DNA from: Zoogloeaceae bacterium
Lineage (GTDB): Bacteria; Pseudomonadota; Gammaproteobacteria; Burkholderiales; Rhodocyclaceae
DNA length: 64,000 bases
Direction: 5' to 3'
Assembly (NCBI GenBank): GCA_031256795.1
Contig: JAIRPW010000013.1
Location: 21,039 to 85,038 of the forward strand
Position 1 is the stretch's first letter; every line of letters begins with the position of its first letter. The notes under the pieces were generated by a model. It saw nothing but the letters and a program-made list of their open reading frames with translations, had not been told where the DNA came from and searched no databases. The position numbers and the translations under genes are program-made. Below are positions 2,854 through 53,286 of the stretch, in pieces.

Positions 2854-3854
2854 GCCCCTCCCCCCAGGATGGCCATATACCGCGCCACACCTTCTTCTAC
2901 GCTGGAAAAAGGCGCGGCGTAGCCCGCCGCGCGCAAACGGGAAATATCCGCCTCGGTAAAAGCCTGATACTTGCCTTTTAAAGCGTCTGGAAAAGGAACG
3001 TATTCCAAAAGCCCGCGCCGGACAATTTCCGCCAGTTCCAGCGGCGGCTCCCCCGACAGGGCGCGGCAACCGTTAATGGCGGAGACGGCAACCTCATTGA
3101 AACTCTGCGCCCGCCCGCTGCCCAGATTAAAAATCCCCGAACAAGCCGGATGATCCAGGAAAAAAAGATTGACCCGCGCGACGTCTCCCACCCAAACGAA
3201 ATCCCGCCGCTGCTCGCCAGAAGCGTAACCATGCGAACCTTCAAAAAGACGCACTTTTCCCGCTTCCCTGAATTGCGAAAAATGATGAAAAGCAACCGAC
3301 GCCATGCGCGCCTTATGCTGCTCACGCGGACCGTAAACGTTGAAATAGCGCAGCCCCACAACCTGGCTTGCCGCGTCCGGCAAACGTTGGCGCACAATCT
3401 GATCCAACAGAAACTTGGAATACCCATACACATTCAGCGGCGCCTCATATTCGCGCGCCTCCCGAAAAATTCCGCCGCCCCCATACGTCGCCGCGCTGGA
3501 AGCGTAAATCAGCGGAACTCCCCGCTCCAGACACCAATCCAGCAAGATGACGGAATAACGATAATTGTTCTCCATCATGTAACGGCCATTGGTCTCCATG
3601 GTGTCGGAACACGCGCCCTGATGCAGAATCGCCTCCACCCCGCCCTCGTAATGCCCGCTCTGAATCCGGCGGAGAAACTCTTCCTTATCCAGATAATCCG
3701 CGATCTCGCAATCTACGAGATTCTGGAATTTTTCCGCGCGGGAAAGGTTATCAACCGCGAGAATACGATCAACGCCTCGATCATTCAGGGCGCGCACGAG
3801 ATTTGAACCAATAAACCCGGCGGCGCCTGTGACAACAATGTATTTGGAAGACAT
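2850..3854 (-). CDS. hldD: ADP-L-glycero-D-manno-heptose 6-epimerase
   Basis: [44 protein letters not shown]. Confidence 0.95.
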
Positions 3855-3942: not shown

Positions 3943-4818
3943 TCAACGCAGCAGCTCTCTGAGCAATCTACCGTTGATATGTGCCTGCGTCCGCTGCAAA
4001 TCAGGCAATTCTTCCGGCAAAACGGCGGGCTGGCCATCCAGCGCGCTCAGCCAGCGTTTCCAGCGGGCGCGGTAGCGGTACAAAGAAACCTCCCCGGTAA
4101 TGTCGCTGCCCGCCAGACAAGGACGGGCGGCGGTAATCACCGTCTGCAAATGCTCCGGGAAAAAACATCCCTGATCCCAGTTGGTGCGCGCCACGCGCGC
4201 GTCCAGCACGTCTTTGTCAATGGAAAGATAAAGGGGAGAGGTTTCGGCGGCAAGTTCCTCTTGCAACGCGGCAACGAGGCTTCCGGCGTCCGGGAACATT
4301 CGCGCCGCGCCGCCGCGCCGCGCGAATATCCGCGTCCAGCCTGCCTTGACCCCAATCGTCCAATAGCGAACGCGGCCGCGGGCAAGCCCTTCCAGGCAAT
4401 TTTCCCAGGCGCGCCCAAGGCTCGCGTCCGCAGAGCAAATGCCGACGACGTCAATGCGCGCAATTTGCGGCAACCGCGCAAGCCACGCGACCCAGGAACC
4501 GCAATGAACGCCAAAAGGGAAACGCATATTGTCAGGATGATTGTCGCAGACAAGAACGCGCAGCTTTCCATACCGCCTTGCCAGACGCGCGGCCAGCAGG
4601 GCGCTGATATGGTGAAAGTCCCCGCTGCCCAGTAACACAGGGCCATGTTTCTCCGGCAGAGAAGAAAGAAAGGCCGAAACATCGCGCCAGACACGCGGCG
4701 TACAGCTAAAACGAACGCGCTCCTGCCAGTCAGAAAGATCAATCCGCCAAAGATCCTGTCCATCCGCCCGGCAGGAGCCGTCAAAATCCAGCGCGACCGG
4801 GAGGGAATCGTCACTCAT
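3943..4818 (-). CDS. Arginase/ureohydrolase-fold metallohydrolase, function unknown
   Basis: GSGDFHH, CDNHPD (DxHxD) and SIDKDVLD motifs of the arginase fold; last gene of the eight-gene cluster. Confidence 0.65.
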   Translation of the reverse strand: MSDDSLPVALDFDGSCRADGQDLWRIDLSDWQERVRFSCTPRVWRDVSAFLSSLPEKHGPVLLGSGDFHHISALLAARLARRYGKLRVLVCDNHPDNMRFPFGVHCGSWVAWLARLPQIARIDVVGICSADASLGRAWENCLEGLARGRVRYWTIGVKAGWTRIFARRGGAARMFPDAGSLVAALQEELAAETSPLYLSIDKDVLDARVARTNWDQGCFFPEHLQTVITAARPCLAGSDITGEVSLYRYRARWKRWLSALDGQPAVLPEELPDLQRTQAHINGRLLRELLR

Positions 4819-5918
4819 CGCGGACTATCCAGCCACTGTTTGTCTGCTTCAAAGCATCCGGCGATACGCCGTAAAATGAAATGGAACAAAGGGTTTTTCC
4901 CATACACCGCATGGCGCGTGAGCGTAAATTTCGCTCCCAGCGCGGCTTTCACTTCCGGGTCTGTCCAGCCCGCGACATAGCAGCGCAAACCCTCGCGCCG
5001 CGCGTAGGCAAGATTTTCCATCCAGCTCACGAAATACAGGTTATTTTCCCGCGCCATCGGATAACGAAATCCAATGGTCTTGTCGACCAGCATTCCATCG
5101 TACACAAAACACAAATTGAAGCCGATGGGCAAATCCCCAAGAAAATACAGAAAAACGCGCCCGTTGAGAGTTTCATCCGCCAGCACCGCCTGAAAATAGG
5201 CGACCGTCAACCGGTCAAAATGCGTATCACTCTGCGCGAAAACCTCTACATATTGCGCGTAAATTTCCGCCAGCACTTCCGGACGCCGCAGGTAATCGTC
5301 GCCCGTAGCGTAAATCTCTATCCGCAGCCGCTCGCGGCGACGCAATTTTCGGCGAATATCACGGCGGCGGGCAGACGAAAGCCGCGCGAGGTACTCTTCC
5401 TCATTGGCAAAGTCAATGGGAACCCAGGCAAGCGCCATTCCTTCGACGATAAAAAATCCCGCCGCGCGGCAGGCGTCGGCCACACGATCCGCCAAACGGT
5501 TCGCCTCCGGGGAAAGAAACGGCGCGTTACAGGCAATGTCCTTGACTATCAACAAGGCGGACTCCCGGTTCCATGCCCGCAACATACTTTGTACGCTCTC
5601 TTCGGGCGGTTCAGACGGCAGCGGGCAAAACTCGCTGACTGTGCTGCCCAGAAAACAGGTTTGCCAGGAAAGCCCGCGCCGCCAAAATCGTTTTCCCGGC
5701 AATTTGGCAAGAAACTTCCGCGTTTTTCCATCCGCCGTCGTAAGTAAATCGTAATTCGCCCAAAAGCCGGGAATGCCGCAGGAACAAGTAAATGTCCGAA
5801 AATCTTCGGGAGGATGGCGCAAAAAATGCCCGACCAGAGCCGCCGACTCCGCGCCGCACAGCCAGGACGGCATTTTCACGGCAGACGAAAAATCGGAAAC
5901 ATCGGGCGGCGTATTCAT
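4815..5918 (-). CDS. FemAB-like / GNAT-fold transferase
   Basis: YLARLSSARRRDIRRKLR and GFRYPMARENNLYFVSWMENL...YVAGWTDPEVKAALGA are typical of FemAB-like GNAT proteins; 4-bp overlaps with both neighbours. Confidence 0.65.
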   Translation of the reverse strand: MNTPPDVSDFSSAVKMPSWLCGAESAALVGHFLRHPPEDFRTFTCSCGIPGFWANYDLLTTADGKTRKFLAKLPGKRFWRRGLSWQTCFLGSTVSEFCPLPSEPPEESVQSMLRAWNRESALLIVKDIACNAPFLSPEANRLADRVADACRAAGFFIVEGMALAWVPIDFANEEEYLARLSSARRRDIRRKLRRRERLRIEIYATGDDYLRRPEVLAEIYAQYVEVFAQSDTHFDRLTVAYFQAVLADETLNGRVFLYFLGDLPIGFNLCFVYDGMLVDKTIGFRYPMARENNLYFVSWMENLAYARREGLRCYVAGWTDPEVKAALGAKFTLTRHAVYGKNPLFHFILRRIAGCFEADKQWLDSPR

Positions 5919-47748: not shown

Positions 47749-48372
47749 TCATTGGGACGCCGATGATCGTAGCGCGCGGATTGCGGCTTTGATTACCGCA
47801 ATCGCGGACGCCAGAAATATGCCCGCGATGATCATGCCGACAAGGATGTCCGGCCAGCGCGAAGTCAAAAGAAAACCGGCGGCCGCCGCGAACAGCACGC
47901 CCAGGTTGGCGAATAAATCATTGCGGGAGCATAGCCATGTCGAACTCATGTTCAGATTGTCGCTCCGGTGGCGGTAAAGCAGAGCGAAACAGACGACATT
48001 GGCGGCAAGCGCCAGACTGCCAATCACGCCCATTGTTTCCACAACGGGCGTCACAGGGTTGAATATTTTCAAGACGGCCTCCGCCAAAACACCAAGGCCA
48101 AACAACAGCATAAAAACGCCTTTGGCCGCCGCCGCTCCGGCTTGCCAGCGCGCGGAACGGTCTAGCGCAAAGAGGCTGAAGCCGTAAACGAGAGAATCCC
48201 CCAGCATATCCAGGGCGTCCGCCAGAAGGCTGGTTGAGTGGGCAAGAAGACCGGCGGCGCCTTCAATAAAAAACATGGCGGCGTTGATTGCAAGCACAAT
48301 CCACAGCACGCGCGCATGCGAACCGCGCAGCGCGGCAATTTCACAGCTTTTATTTTCGCAGCAGCTCGCCAT
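47749..48372 (-). CDS. Short cation diffusion facilitator (CDF) metal efflux protein
   Basis: SLLADALDMLGD, STWLCSRND, WPDILVG; Cys-rich N-terminus MASCCENKSC; no cytoplasmic CTD. Confidence 0.82.
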   Translation of the reverse strand: MASCCENKSCEIAALRGSHARVLWIVLAINAAMFFIEGAAGLLAHSTSLLADALDMLGDSLVYGFSLFALDRSARWQAGAAAAKGVFMLLFGLGVLAEAVLKIFNPVTPVVETMGVIGSLALAANVVCFALLYRHRSDNLNMSSTWLCSRNDLFANLGVLFAAAAGFLLTSRWPDILVGMIIAGIFLASAIAVIKAAIRALRSSASQ

Positions 48373-48429
48373 AATTTGCGTTTCCCGGATTTGCCCAATG
48401 CGCAAAATTTTCCGCGCCTATTTTCCGGC

Positions 48430-48485
48430 TGGCGGAAGCGGTGAGATTCGAACTCACGGACCATTGCTGATCGGCGGTTTTCAAG
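48430..48485 (-). pseudogene. 3' half of the original (split) tRNA-Ser(UGA)
   Basis: Minus strand: CTTGAAAACCGCCGATCAGCAATGGTCCGTGAGTTCGAATCTCACCGCTTCCGCCA (anticodon loop to CCA). Confidence 0.9.
48477..48485. repeat. 9-bp att core, copy 1
   Basis: GTTTTCAAG (+), identical to 50833-50841; equals tRNA anticodon-loop sequence CTTGAAAAC. Confidence 0.85.
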
Positions 48486-48681
48486 TAATTCATAGGTTGA
48501 CTTTACCCTGCTTTTAGTGGCTTGGGTACTTGGGGCGCAATGCTACGTAGCCGATGGCGGTTTGCGCGCCTGCGGGCAGGGAACGGGTAAGGCTGAATTT
48601 GGCGGGCTTGCCGGCTAACCGGCTGCTGCCCTTGTGGTTAGGTCGGTTCAGCTGGCAAGGCATAAGCCCAGCGTAAGAAAG

Positions 48682-49533
48682 TCAGACGGGACGGAACAGC
48701 GTAGCGGGCGAAATCTTGGCCTGAAGCGTGGCAATGATCTGCTCCAGTTCGATGCGCGCCTCGGCTTGCAGGCCAAGGCATGTAGCAATGCCATCCGCAT
48801 CCGTGCTTAGCCGAGAAGCCATTGTCAGGCGGAAGTTTCCATCGTCAGCACGCGCCATCCGATAGGAATGGAGGTGCATCGAGTCACCGACAGCCGCAGG
48901 ATTCTTGACATGGTCGAACTTGAATTCCTTCGTCATGTAGGCGAGGAACTTGTCTTGCACCACGAGGACGAGCTTTCGATTGACGTGCTCGAACGTCTGC
49001 ACCTTGTGGTGCATCTGGACGAGGATCGTCTTTGCGGTCATCTTCCAGTTCATGCCAAAGGACTTATCGGACTCTTCGCCGTTGTCTCCGCGCGCGACTC
49101 CCAGCTCTTTCAGCAGGCGTTGACGTTCGGGCCATACAGTGCCCGTCGTGTCGAGCGTTTGCAGTTCGATACCCACAAAGTCCCGAACCTTGCCTTCCTT
49201 CGCAGACACGAGCACATAGTCGATGCTTCCGCCGGGCACCGTGACCTCGGACACCAAGTGCAGCTCGTTCCCCGGTTCATGGCTGGTCAGCAGGTGCAAG
49301 CAGTCCGTGAAGATTTGCCCGTGCTGAATAAGGCGCGTGGGGCAGATGATGATCGGCTCTGGCTCCCGGCCATAGAGAACCGTACAGGAGCCAATCGAAA
49401 TCTCGGGATTGGACTTCCGAACTTTGTAGCAGCGCTTGCCAAGGAAGGGGCACTGCTGTTTCCCGATTACCCCCTGCCAGTCAATACCCGGCGCGTCGGC
49501 GGCTTTGCCGAACAGTTCGACAACTTTGCTCAT
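48682..49533 (-). CDS. NotI-family type II restriction endonuclease
   Basis: Cys4 pattern CPF..C..GSC..ICP and IDYVL...GIELQTLDTTG core as in the NotI family; ATG overlaps the MTase TGA. Confidence 0.75.
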   Translation of the reverse strand: MSKVVELFGKAADAPGIDWQGVIGKQQCPFLGKRCYKVRKSNPEISIGSCTVLYGREPEPIIICPTRLIQHGQIFTDCLHLLTSHEPGNELHLVSEVTVPGGSIDYVLVSAKEGKVRDFVGIELQTLDTTGTVWPERQRLLKELGVARGDNGEESDKSFGMNWKMTAKTILVQMHHKVQTFEHVNRKLVLVVQDKFLAYMTKEFKFDHVKNPAAVGDSMHLHSYRMARADDGNFRLTMASRLSTDADGIATCLGLQAEARIELEQIIATLQAKISPATLFRPV

Positions 49534-50696
49534 AGAAGACCATCGCACCTTTCTTGCGAGAGTTCGAGATAGTGGCGCGATATGTCGATGCCCACTGACT
49601 TGAGGCCAAGATTACGGGCAACAAGCAGAGTTGTGCCAGTCCCGCAGAAGGGGTCAAGCACTATGCCGCCGGGCGGGCATGTGGCAAGGAGAGGTCTTCG
49701 ACAAAGATCTAGAGGATACGGGGCGAAGTGCGCGCCGCGTCGCTGCGTGTCCTCGGGAATGATGTCCCACACGTCACCCGGCTTACTGCCGTTGGGGTGG
49801 TACTTGAGGAAGTAAAAGCCCTTGTCTCGAAGCTCTTTCGCTCGACCTGAAACCTTCTCACTATCCGAATGCGTGGCGCGTTGCTGACCACGAATAATCA
49901 TGCGGAAATCCGAGACGTTGCCCGCTGCCACGTCGGCAAGCATGCGGTCAAGCGCAGCGAAGGCAGCCTTCTTCTCGTTCTCGTCGAGGGCCGTGGAAAG
50001 CTCAAGCTGCCTCTTGTAGCGGACGCCGGAAACGCCAGTAGCTGAAATGACTGCGCCGTTGACGACTTTCGCCTCGCGCGGTTTCGACCGAATAGCGTCA
50101 GCGTTGTAGTAGTACCCCTTCGGCTGCTTCACGAAGTGAAAGAGATTCTCGTGGACGTTGGCTAGGCGATCTTTGCTGTTGTCCATGCCGCCCTTCAACT
50201 TGTTCCAGACGATGCTATTCCGCATCGTCCAGCCTTGGACGTCAGTCAACTCGAAAGCAATCCTCCACGGAATCCCGAGCAAGCTCTTGCCGTTGTAGGT
50301 GTCGCCGATATTGAGCCAGAACGACCCCGTAGGCTTTAGAACCCGCTTCAGCTCCAAGAAGATGGCAGCCAAGTCCTTTACGAAGTCCCGGTAGTCGGCC
50401 TCAAGGCCGATGCCCCCGTTCTCGTACTCACGCTTCCCCCAATACGGCGGGGAAGTCATGGCGAAGTCGATGCACTCGTCTGGTAGGGACTTGAGAACGG
50501 CGAGCGCATCGCCGTTGAGCAGCAGCGGGCGCAGCGCTGCTTCCCGCTGGTAGGCAGCGAATGCGCGCCCGTAGTCCTTCGAGACGATATGTGGTGACGA
50601 CTGGTCGCTATCGCTTACGGTCTGCTTACGGTGGGTTGCGCCGCTCACTGCCTCGATGCTCCCGTCAATCACTGAAATCCTCTCGTTTTGCAGCAC
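49530..50696 (-). CDS. Beta-class amino (probably N4-cytosine) DNA methyltransferase
   Basis: NGDALAVL, TSPPY, NIGD, HFAPYP, DPFCGTGTT; catalytic motif precedes the SAM motif. Exact start uncertain. Confidence 0.9.
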   Translation of the reverse strand: MLQNERISVIDGSIEAVSGATHRKQTVSDSDQSSPHIVSKDYGRAFAAYQREAALRPLLLNGDALAVLKSLPDECIDFAMTSPPYWGKREYENGGIGLEADYRDFVKDLAAIFLELKRVLKPTGSFWLNIGDTYNGKSLLGIPWRIAFELTDVQGWTMRNSIVWNKLKGGMDNSKDRLANVHENLFHFVKQPKGYYYNADAIRSKPREAKVVNGAVISATGVSGVRYKRQLELSTALDENEKKAAFAALDRMLADVAAGNVSDFRMIIRGQQRATHSDSEKVSGRAKELRDKGFYFLKYHPNGSKPGDVWDIIPEDTQRRGAHFAPYPLDLCRRPLLATCPPGGIVLDPFCGTGTTLLVARNLGLKSVGIDISRHYLELSQERCDGLL

Positions 50697-50737
50697 TCCC
50701 TAGCGACGTGGAATCTCGCGTAAGTGCTTGTTTTTAC

Positions 50738-50825
50738 TGGCGGAAGCGGTGAGATTCGAACTCACGAACGGTTGCCCGTTGCCGGTTTTCAAGACCGGTG
50801 CAATCGACCACTCTGCCACGCTTCC
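50738..50825 (-). tRNA. tRNA-Ser(UGA), complete, carried by the cassette
   Basis: GGAAGCG TG GCA GAGTGGTCGAT TGC A CCGGT CTTGAAA ACCGG CAACGGGCAACCGTTC GTGAG TTCGAAT CTCAC CGCTTCC GCCA: 88 nt, long variable arm, G73, encoded CCA. Confidence 0.95.
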
Positions 50826-50832
50826 TACAACT

Positions 50833-50841
50833 GTTTTCAAG
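50833..50841. repeat. 9-bp att core, copy 2
   Basis: GTTTTCAAG (+). Confidence 0.85.
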
Positions 50842-50873
50842 ACCGCTGGGTTAAACCACTCCCCCACGCTTCC
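50833..50873 (-). pseudogene. 5' half of the original (split) tRNA-Ser(UGA)
   Basis: Minus strand: GGAAGCGTGGGGGAGTGGTTTAACCCAGCGGTCTTGAAAAC. Its anticodon-stem strand GCGGT pairs with ACCGC of the 48430-48485 half. Confidence 0.9.
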
Positions 50874-50886
50874 TCTTTCCTGGGCA

Positions 50887-50895
50887 ATTCTAGCA
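50887..50895 (-). promoter_or_regulatory. Extended -10 promoter of the tRNA-Ser locus
   Basis: TGCTAGAAT on the minus strand, 13 nt upstream of the tRNA 5' half. Confidence 0.55.
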
Positions 50896-50964
50896 CGCGC
50901 GGCAGTCTGTTTTTTTCAGAGCGCGGCGGGACGTCCTCTTTCCCGTTCTGGCCGCTTTTGCGGC

Positions 50965-52350
50965 TTATGCCGTAAAAAGCGCGATGGATTCTACATGCGC
51001 CGTGTGCGGGAACATATTCATTATTCCGGCGGCTTTGAGCGCGTAGCCCTTTTGCGACGTCAAAATTGCCGCGTCCCGCGCCAGCGTAGCGGGATTACAG
51101 GAAACATACACAATCCGCTCGGGGCGCGTTTCCGGCGGCAAACTCTTGACGACTTTCAGCGCGCCTTCACGCGGCGGATCAAGAATGAGTTTATTCGCGC
51201 GTCCAAAACCAAGCGTCAGTTCCCGCCAAAAATCTGGCGTTACGGTAAACAAATCCCGGCTCAGAAATTCCGCCCGCCCCTCCAGCTGATGCGCGCGCGC
51301 GTTTTCCCGCGCGCGCCCGGTAAGCGCGGGATTGCCCTCAATGCCCAATATTTTCGCGCCCTGCCCTGCCAGCGTTTTGGCGATCGGCAGCGTGAAATTT
51401 CCCAATCCGCAAAATAAATCAACGACGCGGTCCTGCGGGGAAAGTTCCAGTAAAGTCAGCGCGCGACGAATCAGCGCGCGGTTCATGGAATGATTGGCCT
51501 GCGTAAAATCTGTCGGACAAAACGTCATGCGCAAATTCTGTTCCGGAAGAAGATAGGCCAGTTCCTGATTTTTCTCCAAAGGCGGTTCAGGATGAAAAAG
51601 AGTTGCGGATTCAGGCCCGCCTTTTTGCAAATAAAGCAGCGTGTCCCATGTTTGGGCAAAAGCGCGGATTGCCATTTTGTCCGCCGCGCTTGCGGGTTTG
51701 AGAATACGCAATACCAGAGCCGCGCGCTCTTCGCCGACCGCGATTTCCACCTGCGGCAGACGATCCCGCACGGACAAGCCGCCAATCAGCTCGCGCAAAG
51801 GCGCGAGAAGCCGCGCCGCCAGCGGATGCAGCACCGGACAGACACGCACATCGGCGATATAACTGCTTTTGCGCGCGCGGAATCCCAAAAGCACAGCGTT
51901 CCGCACAAAACGCGCGCCCAGCCGCGCCCGATGGCGGTATCCCCAGGCTGGACCATGAATGGGCGTGAGCGGCGTTTCCGCCCTGACGCGGCCAACGTGC
52001 CAGAGCGTATCTTCCAGAATCCGCGCCTTGACCGCGACTTGCGCCGTCGCGTCCAGATGCTGCATGACGCAGCCGCCGCATACGCCAAAATGCGGGCAAC
52101 GTGCCGCGACACGCTGGAAAGAGGACGACAAAAGGGCGCGTAGACGCGCTTGTTCGTAGCGCGGTTTAACGCAAAAACTTTCGTACTCCACCCGTTCGCC
52201 CGGCAAAGCGTCTTCCACAAAAATGACCTTGCCTTTCGCGCGCGCGATTCCGCGCGCTTCGTGATCCAGCGCTTCAATCAGTCCAACTCCGATTTGCCGT
52301 TCCGGTGTTTTTTCCGCGGCGTCCTCTAAAGGCATCAACAAATCTTTCAT
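50965..52350 (-). CDS. rlmD: 23S rRNA m5U1939 methyltransferase
   Basis: TRAM domain, CPHFGVCGGCVMQH, DLFCGLGNF, LDPPREG, YVSCNPATLARD, MFPHTAHVES. Confidence 0.93.
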   Translation of the reverse strand: MKDLLMPLEDAAEKTPERQIGVGLIEALDHEARGIARAKGKVIFVEDALPGERVEYESFCVKPRYEQARLRALLSSSFQRVAARCPHFGVCGGCVMQHLDATAQVAVKARILEDTLWHVGRVRAETPLTPIHGPAWGYRHRARLGARFVRNAVLLGFRARKSSYIADVRVCPVLHPLAARLLAPLRELIGGLSVRDRLPQVEIAVGEERAALVLRILKPASAADKMAIRAFAQTWDTLLYLQKGGPESATLFHPEPPLEKNQELAYLLPEQNLRMTFCPTDFTQANHSMNRALIRRALTLLELSPQDRVVDLFCGLGNFTLPIAKTLAGQGAKILGIEGNPALTGRARENARAHQLEGRAEFLSRDLFTVTPDFWRELTLGFGRANKLILDPPREGALKVVKSLPPETRPERIVYVSCNPATLARDAAILTSQKGYALKAAGIMNMFPHTAHVESIALFTA

Positions 52351-52870: not shown

Positions 52871-53028
52871 AAGAATTTATTTCAATGGCTTAAGACGCTG
52901 ATTTTATTTTTTTGGAATTCATTTTTTCCCGTTGCGGCAGTGCAACATTTTATTTTCATGGTTATAATCAGAATTGTCCGGTCTTCCGGTCAAGATTTTG
53001 TCAAGATTTTTTTATTAAGGGATCAAAC

Positions 53029-53286
53029 ATGAAGCATTCTTTCCTCGTTGCCAGTCTGCTGGCGTTTGCTGTTTCTGCCTGTACCGCTGAAGAAGCCGCT
53101 CCTCCTGAAGCCGCTCCGGAAACTCCTGCCGTAGTGGAACCCGCGCCTGAGCCGACTCCCGTTGCGGAAGAAGCCGCTCCGGCGGAAGAAGCCGCCCCGG
53201 CGGAAGAGGCCGCTCCGGCGGAAGAAGCCGCCCCGGCGGAAGAAGCCGCCCCGGCGGAAGCTGCCGCTCCGGCCGCCGCGCAGTAA
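53029..53286 (+). CDS. Small Ala/Glu/Pro-rich repeat lipoprotein
   Basis: MKHSFLVASLLAFAVSAC lipobox, AAGGGA RBS, AEEAAP repeats, followed by a terminator. Confidence 0.8.
   Translation: MKHSFLVASLLAFAVSACTAEEAAPPEAAPETPAVVEPAPEPTPVAEEAAPAEEAAPAEEAAPAEEAAPAEEAAPAEAAAPAAAQ
53164..53271 (+). repeat. Six tandem 18-bp coding repeats (AEEAAP)
   Basis: GCGGAAGAAGCCGC(T/C)CCG x6 with minor variants. Confidence 0.95.

Follow-up and report, generated by a model that had tools for sequence, protein, structure and literature searches.

A tRNA-Ser(UGA) gene split at its anticodon loop very likely holds the deleted remnant of an integrase-driven island family that brings a replacement tRNA

A 64,000-nucleotide stretch of a Zoogloeaceae bacterium genome (contig JAIRPW010000013.1; the whole stretch is called the window hereafter) carries an element of 2,356 bp inside a host tRNA-Ser(UGA) gene. 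Read along the minus strand, the host gene's 5' part is followed by CTTGAAAAC, the heptamer AGTTGTA, a complete tRNA-Ser(UGA), a methyltransferase gene, a NotI-family endonuclease gene, about 200 nt, and then a second CTTGAAAAC with the 3' part of the host gene. The locus is very likely the internally deleted remnant of a family of integrase-driven islands, which target the anticodon loop of tRNA-Ser(UGA) genes and replace the interrupted tRNA rather than repair it. A preliminary description of this DNA had reported the split tRNA-Ser, the complete inner tRNA and the restriction-modification (R-M) pair, all of which are confirmed by the sequence, ARAGORN and Pfam. It had further read the element as a minimal circular cassette built for mobilisation in trans, and this part was not borne out: the relatives are islands of 6.5-9 kb with their own integrase, and the copy in the window is internally deleted.

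ARAGORN calls a single tRNA in the window, the inner tRNA-Ser(tga) (50738-50825, minus strand), and the Rfam search of positions 48000-51200 returned the same single tRNA and nothing further. Around it, positions 50873-50833 read GGAAGCGTGGGGGAGTGGTTTAACCCAGCGGT plus CTTGAAAAC, positions 50832-50826 are AGTTGTA, and positions 48485-48430 read CTTGAAAAC plus CGCCGATCAGCAATGGTCCGTGAGTTCGAATCTCACCGCTTCCGCCA. The two attachment (att) core copies, 50841-50833 and 48485-48477, are thus direct repeats inside the tRNA gene and cover its anticodon loop. Fused at this 9-bp repeat, the host halves give an 88-nt product which ARAGORN, given the product alone, calls as tRNA-Ser(tga) with all stems paired, and the same call is made in the genomic context once the 2,356 bp are taken out. 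The comparison with and without the insert that had been proposed earlier therefore yields a valid tRNA, and precise excision would, as had also been suggested, restore the host gene. Compared with the reconstructed host tRNA, the inner tRNA is changed in its D stem, its anticodon stem and its variable arm, and compensation is seen in all three.

The same arrangement, in which a host 5' half is joined to the core, an AGTTGTA-type spacer and a complete tRNA-Ser(UGA), was found in 26 loci (window included), so that the search for the same architecture with other cargo that the preliminary description had recommended returned a family with varied defence cargo. A metagenome scan with CTTGAAAACAGTTGTAGGA contributed 23 loci, 21 of which have the junction, and most of them carry cargo other than the R-M pair of the window; two of the 19-mer matches (L095, L103) have no tRNA context and were treated as unrelated. 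The taxa include Pseudoxanthomonas mexicana (complete genome, L013), a Lysobacteraceae genome and an Accumulibacter metagenome-assembled genome (MAG; L012). Like the window, L008, L012, L013 and L014 each have a different tRNA-Ser 5' half, followed by core, spacer and complete tRNA-Ser(UGA). The core is CTTGAAAAC in L012, L013 and L014 and TTAAAAAAC in L008, and AGTTGTA follows the core in 25 of the 26 loci (AGATATA in L008).

The 26 loci hold 19 distinct full-length host halves and only 9 inner tRNA variants. The inner tRNA of the window is identical to those of L102, L107, L112 and L119, all of which stand behind other host halves; it therefore travels with the element, and the earlier view of it as a distinct allele belonging to the element itself is upheld. 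Across the nine variants, 225/225 cells of the cloverleaf are paired and 14 of the 25 pairs are compensatory, a combination reached in 0/500 shuffles. Since the perfect cloverleaf and the compensatory changes exceed all shuffles, the island tRNAs are taken to be functional genes under selection. Beyond these loci, the scans of viral contigs for the attL junction and the right-end motif returned nothing, the family being absent from catalogued viral contigs; the complete Escherichia coli genomes hold no copy of the junction with the island tRNA, and plasmid matches to this query reach only the level of tRNA-Ser genes.

Two observations concern the variation at this junction. In L014, L092, L096 and L110, 10 further nucleotides (GGATGAATTT) stand between AGTTGTA and the tRNA and make a 17-nt spacer, AGTTGTAGGATGAATTT; this subgroup always carries the same island tRNA variant. 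In the Accumulibacter MAG, the displaced host 5' half (L012, 3661-3692) has a D arm of the island type (GGCAGAGTGGTCGATTGCA), so that either the island tRNA stems from the lineage of this host's native tRNA, or the insertion took place in the tRNA of an earlier island.

Five islands were recovered with both ends (2,356, 2,743, 6,477, 8,937 and 8,962 bp), and in 5/5 of them the fused host halves give a tRNA-Ser(tga). In all five, the identity between attL and attR is only 8-9 bp. The island L013 has 8 bp, as its ninth core base differs between the attL and attR sides, and the exchange can for this reason be placed within CTTGAAAA; its right end reads ...TGAATA, then CTTGAAAA, and then the host 3' half that matches its 5' half. 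This short identity, with 19 host halves, supports for the family the earlier proposal that an element supplying its own tRNA needs only about 9 bp of target.

A direct repeat of 9 bp that flanks an insert could also be a target-site duplication, for which 9 bp is a common length among DDE transposons. A transposon-like insertion is nevertheless very improbable here. The open reading frames (ORFs) and Pfam domains of the element include no transposase, and no terminal inverted repeats are apparent on reading its ends, for which no repeat-finding tool was run. Across the 26 loci, neither the sequence of the repeat nor its place in the tRNA varies, the 8-bp identity with a differing ninth base in L013 fits a recombination core and not a duplication, and the intact relatives carry a tyrosine integrase.

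The organisation of the intact islands is clearest in L098 (8,962 bp) and L100 (8,937 bp), where the tRNA is followed by an R-M pair, conserved backbone genes, a replication-type AAA_25 ATPase, an excisionase-like HTH_17 protein and a tyrosine integrase of 409-410 aa. The integrase combines PF00589 with the arm-binding domain PF13356 and lies immediately inside attR. L119 (6,477 bp) joins the exact tRNA of the window to DarT/NADAR and TIR genes and to an integrase of the L013 subtype beside attR, and L118 likewise has an integrase beside attR. The general remark of the preliminary description that tRNA-targeting islands usually encode a tyrosine integrase applies to this family as well. Among nine proteins of the L098 and L100 islands, Pfam recognised only the integrase, HTH_17, AAA_25 and R-M domains, three proteins being without a match, and in the phage collection the most similar integrases share about 31% identity. 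When the 81-residue integrase fragment of L013 served as query, all proteins returned were short, which raised the candidate of a conserved protein with the arm domain only. This candidate was rejected because in L118 and L119 an ORF with the catalytic domain directly follows the short ORF, pointing to a split or frameshifted integrase. The broken integrase fragment of the L013 type was seen on 20 contigs.

The slot behind the tRNA holds a ScaI-type R-M system in L100, further R-M pairs in L093 and L098, a DarT-like pair in L110, the DarT/NADAR and TIR genes in L119, and in L097 large defence-type genes which were recognised by eye without a library scan. The block directly after the tRNA (window 50737-50715) is conserved in islands with such unrelated cargo. 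Within it, 13 nt after the island tRNA, lies the motif GCACTTACGCG, which is found again, in either orientation, in the integrase-side arm near the integrase start of L013, L118 and L119. To judge from this distribution, the copies of GCACTTACGCG are probably arm-type integrase sites, and the tRNA gene would therefore lie inside attP, between the core and an arm site. As a separate observation, an AlpA-family gene lies just outside attR in L119 (5511-5726), hinting at a second adjacent element in tandem.

The element of the window retains the two borders of such an island and little between them other than cargo. A tblastn search for the family integrase across the 64 kb found none, and the ORFs and Pfam domains of the element likewise include none. 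The segment past the endonuclease gene is 69-79% identical to the segment that follows the unrelated R-M modules of L094, L093, L012, L100, L092 and L014, and shorter matches in L001, L098, L110 and L013 reach 77-82%. Because this backbone segment matches the post-cargo segment of the islands, the right border of the cargo slot is still present in the window. Beyond it, positions 48519-48486 match, in L013 and L118, the core-proximal end of the arm that lies upstream of the integrase gene, and the end of L119 is alike (...gtaaaagctgatcgctgaata, then CTTGAAAAC). What is missing are the backbone genes, the integrase and most of the integrase-side arm. By its sequence the locus has the features of an att-flanked remnant without integrase, with attL and attR present, the recombination module gone and an origin from a larger element by deletion. 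Most simply read, an island of the L119/L012 type was integrated in the window and later lost its interior; the element would then lack a recombinase because the internal deletion removed the integrase. The remnant is probably immobile and fixed. In the backbone segment, about 160 nt are non-coding and hold, on the minus strand, a stem-loop (CTAACC...GGTTAG); this stretch is conserved to the right of the slot despite unrelated cargo and has no Rfam match, and its possible roles are those of a recombination border, a terminator or a small RNA.

These data bear directly on the reading of the element as a minimal self-contained cassette (core, tRNA and R-M pair) that circularises and is moved by an integrase acting in trans, much as a cis- or trans-mobilisable element would be. 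Such a cassette would agree with the intact att cores, between which excision would restore the host tRNA, and with the second small integrase-less version in P. mexicana. The island tRNA would moreover offer a fresh attB, where an intact island could insert and perhaps co-excise the remnant. The internal end points nevertheless differ: L013 is a deletion with other end points than the window element, in which the first 81 integrase codons are left, so that the two deletions are judged to have arisen separately from larger islands. In three other runs, near-identical R-M cassettes diverge from the window at 48568, and none of them has its internal junction. Integrases of the lambda type with arm-binding domains normally need arm sites on both sides of the core for excision; the family integrases have the arm-binding PF13356, and only about 34 nt of the integrase-side arm are left. 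As there is also no related integrase within the 64 kb, mobilisation in trans is an unlikely account of the element.

Assembly error was considered for the same locus, since tRNA arms are present three times in 2.4 kb and can confuse assemblers; the Logan contigs do break at the 30-nt repeat of T arm and acceptor. Against a chimera stands an independent Logan contig from a termite-gut metagenome run (L115), which runs from rlmD through the host 5' half and the spacer into the start of the inner tRNA, and in this source run the depth of the Logan contigs is even (15-17x) across both flanks and the cassette. With an independent contig that spans attL and with even depth, an assembly artefact is very unlikely. 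A complete genome and 24 further loci, with host halves and cargo of their own, have the junction as well, and the inner tRNA shows compensated differences from the host tRNA and is identical to tRNAs in other hosts. A chimera, or a local tandem duplication of the tRNA followed by an unrelated R-M insertion, is accordingly hard to credit. One contig of the source run (54.7x, shorter side 22 nt) joins 48435 to 51126; considered as an empty site, it does not match the expected one and probably comes from another organism.

The position of the host gene could be compared with its two nearest, though distant, relatives, in which the site is unoccupied (L116 and L117). In both, an intact tRNA-Ser(UGA) lies directly after rlmD and is preceded by the same TGnTAGAAT element. 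Because of this shared order of rlmD, element and tRNA, the 5' half in the window marks the native position of the tRNA and probably keeps the native promoter. The host is a divergent betaproteobacterium of Rhodocyclales-like affinity: its RlmD reaches no more than 63% identity with the best homologues, of which the named ones come from Zoogloeaceae, Azonexus, Propionivibrio or Betaproteobacteria. Near this site, L117 shows a further peculiarity: about 70 nt downstream of the intact tRNA-Ser(UGA), at 5486-5744, a 21-nt palindromic unit is repeated in tandem, with 12 copies. Several of these hold ACGGAAGCCTCGT, which is also found in the integrase-side arm of L013, and L119 has the near-identical ACCGAAGCCTCGT.

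Several points weigh against the interpretation of the locus as a decayed integrase island whose tRNA has taken over from that of the host. Little is left of the integrase-side arm, and the remnant resembles L013 and L118 only modestly; the integrases of L118 and L119 are themselves split into two ORFs in their assemblies. The promoter element is supported only by its conservation; a simple consensus scan missed it for want of a good -35 element. In the lowest-energy fold predicted for the precursor, the acceptor strand of the displaced 5' half pairs with the 3' end of the island tRNA, the two acceptor strands being identical in the window, and the correct maturation of this island tRNA is an assumption. 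The source run contains no contig of an attP circle or of an empty site, although contigs cannot show rare forms. The visible part of the host genome is 64 kb, and a related integrase or a second tRNA-Ser(UGA) may be present in the remainder of that genome.

On the interpretation that we favour, in which the window holds the deleted remnant of such an island, integration can be outlined as follows. The attP of the family consists of the integrase-side arm, the core CTTGAAAA(C), AGTTGTA, the complete tRNA-Ser(UGA), a probable arm-type site and the variable defence slot. Strand exchange would take place in the 7-nt anticodon loop, as is known from tyrosine integrases at other anticodon-centred sites, and a crossover inside the 8-9 bp core would cut the host tRNA in two without repair. 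After insertion, two fragments of the host gene remain, one 5' and one 3', with no intact copy restored from them. The island tRNA lands 7 nt downstream of the displaced 5' half, where the host tRNA promoter would transcribe it, and RNase P would then remove the leader from the precursor. As both halves of the new tRNA come with the island, no match with the acceptor, D or anticodon stems of the host would be needed, which fits the 19 host halves. Since the host would depend on the island tRNA at this locus, imprecise loss of the island would be penalised. In the window, a later deletion would have removed everything between 165 nt past the endonuclease gene and about 34 nt before the core. 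R-M pairs are known for post-segregational killing, and this activity, with the dependence on the tRNA, may retain the remnant. We tentatively propose that a design of this kind, which replaces and does not repair, lets an island enter any genome with a tRNA-Ser(UGA) anticodon loop CTTGAAAA, however the remainder of that tRNA reads, borrow the host promoter and make the host dependent on its tRNA, and that this dependence, along with defence or R-M cargo, could explain the persistence of remnants such as this one once the integrase is gone.

Canonical tRNA-targeting islands with an anticodon-centred attP were reportedly described by Reiter in 1989 and Williams in 2002. Their attP contains part of the tRNA gene, by which the target is restored upon integration (PMC4383910). 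The family described here shares with them an integrase next to one att site, a crossover in the anticodon loop, short direct repeats, a displaced 3' fragment and variable cargo. It differs in that the gene is not repaired by the AGTTGTA after the core, a 5' fragment stays behind as well as a 3' one, a whole tRNA is supplied, and the identity between attP and attB is 8-9 bp. A target-regenerating attP fragment was not encountered: AGTTGTA follows the host 5' half, ARAGORN and Rfam find no tRNA there, and a separate complete tRNA is present in 26/26 loci. Remnants of integrative elements that are flanked by att sites and lack the recombinase have been described for ICESt1-type elements. The elements of the window and of L013 resemble such cis-mobilisable or decayed elements in being flanked by attL and attR with the integrase lost, and the difference is that in the window the integrase-side arm is almost wholly gone.

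Defence hotspots are found in P4-like satellites and P2-like prophages (PMC9122126). The islands have in common with these the integrase domain pair (Arm-DNA-bind_3 and Phage_integrase) and an interchangeable anti-phage slot bordered by conserved sequence, whereas the target and the attP design differ. The P4 hallmark genes psu, sid, delta and alpha primase were not recognised among the island ORFs, for which no dedicated search was made. Another comparison is offered by the tycheposons of Prochlorococcus, tyrosine-recombinase elements in tRNA genes, including tRNA-Ser(TGA), with defence or nutrient cargo (bioRxiv 10.1101/2020.12.28.424599). Their flanks are a full-length host tRNA and partial copies, as in canonical repair, and no replacement tRNA behind a split host gene is described for them. 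A limited literature search found the canonical rule and several tRNA-Ser islands, and no full replacement tRNA behind a split host gene; a prior description is possible, and the design is apparently undescribed.

For more than 30 years, elements that insert into tRNA genes have been expected, as a working rule, to bring a matching piece of the gene and rebuild it. Island-finding software of the Islander type is built on this signature of target regeneration, and in the present family it would set the island boundary at the wrong tRNA, because the 5' halves are invisible to tRNA finders. The consequences for host range and stability follow from the same design. The part carried by the island need not pair with the host 5' half, which fits 19 host tRNAs in Beta- and Gammaproteobacteria; and where the host relies on the island gene, only precise excision would be tolerated and remnants would keep the tRNA. 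An integrase with a universal target of 8-9 bp would make a compact natural integration system and a candidate broad-host-range tool. For the window, the message is simpler: the locus is served by a tRNA-Ser(UGA) that came from outside, and the R-M pair has been left there as stranded cargo. The locus would thus be an ordinary outcome, a decayed island, of an unusual, recurrent and widespread family.

The coordinates of the element and its flanks are collected in Table 1. The base composition does not set the cassette apart, the GC fraction being 0.56-0.60 within it and 0.55-0.64 around it. Farther out on the plus strand, the ORF 52912-53286 codes for a small protein whose N-terminus is signal-like and which contains repeated AEEAAP units.

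Table 1. Features of the split tRNA-Ser(UGA) locus and its flanks (positions in the window)
Feature	Position	Strand	Evidence or remark
Probable host promoter, extended -10 element TGCTAGAAT	50887..50895	-	13 nt upstream of the host tRNA 5' end; read from the sequence, putative
Displaced host tRNA-Ser(UGA) 5' part (32 nt: acceptor strand, D arm, 5' anticodon stem)	50842..50873	-	
attL core copy CTTGAAAAC (anticodon loop CTTGAAA + AC)	50833..50841	-	
Island left end AGTTGTA	50826..50832	-	
Island-borne complete tRNA-Ser(UGA), functional replacement	50738..50825	-	ARAGORN; Rfam tRNA 59.4 bits
Conserved post-tRNA block GTAAAAACAAGCACTTACGCGAG, holding the probable arm-type integrase site GCACTTACGCG	50715..50737	-	Putative function
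DNA methyltransferase, 380 aa	49530..50672	-	PF01555 N6_N4_Mtase, E=1e-46
NotI-family restriction endonuclease, 283 aa, ATG 49533	48682..49533	-	PF12183, E=7e-11
Island backbone remnant, right border of the cargo slot	48520..48681	-	Homology to relatives; the 165 nt counted past the endonuclease are 48684-48520
Remnant of the integrase-side (P) arm of attP, about 34 nt, ending ...GTAAAGTCAACCTATGAATTA	48486..48519	-	Alignment with L013 and L118
attR: core CTTGAAAAC (48485-48477) and displaced host tRNA-Ser(UGA) 3' part	48430..48485	-	
Host flank gene rlmD (23S rRNA U1939 methyltransferase)	50965..52350	-	PF05958 and TRAM (Pfam)
Host flank gene, cation-efflux (CDF) family	47749..48405	-	PF01545, E=8e-21

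Type II R-M gene pairs are said, in the work of Kobayashi and colleagues, to be selfish and horizontally mobile units. The pair in the window is like these in joining a methyltransferase and an endonuclease in overlapping genes, and it differs in being cargo in the slot of an integrase island and not the mobile agent. The most likely start of the methyltransferase is GTG 50672 (380 aa, as called in the homologues), while the longest ORF begins at 50696, and the endonuclease gene overlaps the methyltransferase stop by 4 nt. Judged against their homologues, both proteins are full length and form an adjacent gene pair as in type II systems. The methyltransferase is 86-96% identical to those of L001, L006/L007, L008, L011, L012-L014, L015 and L026. 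For the endonuclease, 4,635 homologues were found, and those at 64-98% identity are spread across many phyla in unrelated contexts; the alignment A1 of 28 members of this family includes the window protein, which by definition agrees with its invariant columns. A tRNA-Ser(UGA) stands immediately upstream of the methyltransferase only where the endonuclease is at least 90% identical, among 80 genome loci and individually fetched contigs; four of the loci with such a tRNA are L008, L012, L013 and L014, which share the split-tRNA design. The endonuclease sequence has no match among solved structures, and in NCBIfam the methyltransferase and the integrase match only below the cut-off and the endonuclease not at all. 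The palindrome CGGCCG occurs 7 times in the 64 kb against 21.6 expected; many other palindromes are more depleted, so that this count does not pinpoint the recognition site.

Related R-M pairs were met in other settings as well. In L026 (a Herbaspirillum MAG, 3709-3796) and L011 (Magnetococcus, 4714-4801), a complete tRNA-Ser(UGA) precedes the R-M pair with no displaced 5' half upstream; these may be further states of decay or the product of another mode of acquisition. The endonuclease alignment of L026 ends early, suggesting a frameshift. On Burkholderia glumae chromosomes (L002-L005), the same R-M pair (endonuclease 89% identical) lies between insertion sequence (IS) elements, and a decayed tRNA-Ser pseudogene precedes the methyltransferase, at about 120-35 nt before the start of its alignment (in L002 near 4723-4806). 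Conservation extends over the first two thirds of this pseudogene, whereas the T arm has degraded, with an alignment score of 66 against a shuffle maximum of 38, and the tRNA seems to have moved along with the R-M genes and then decayed where it was not needed.

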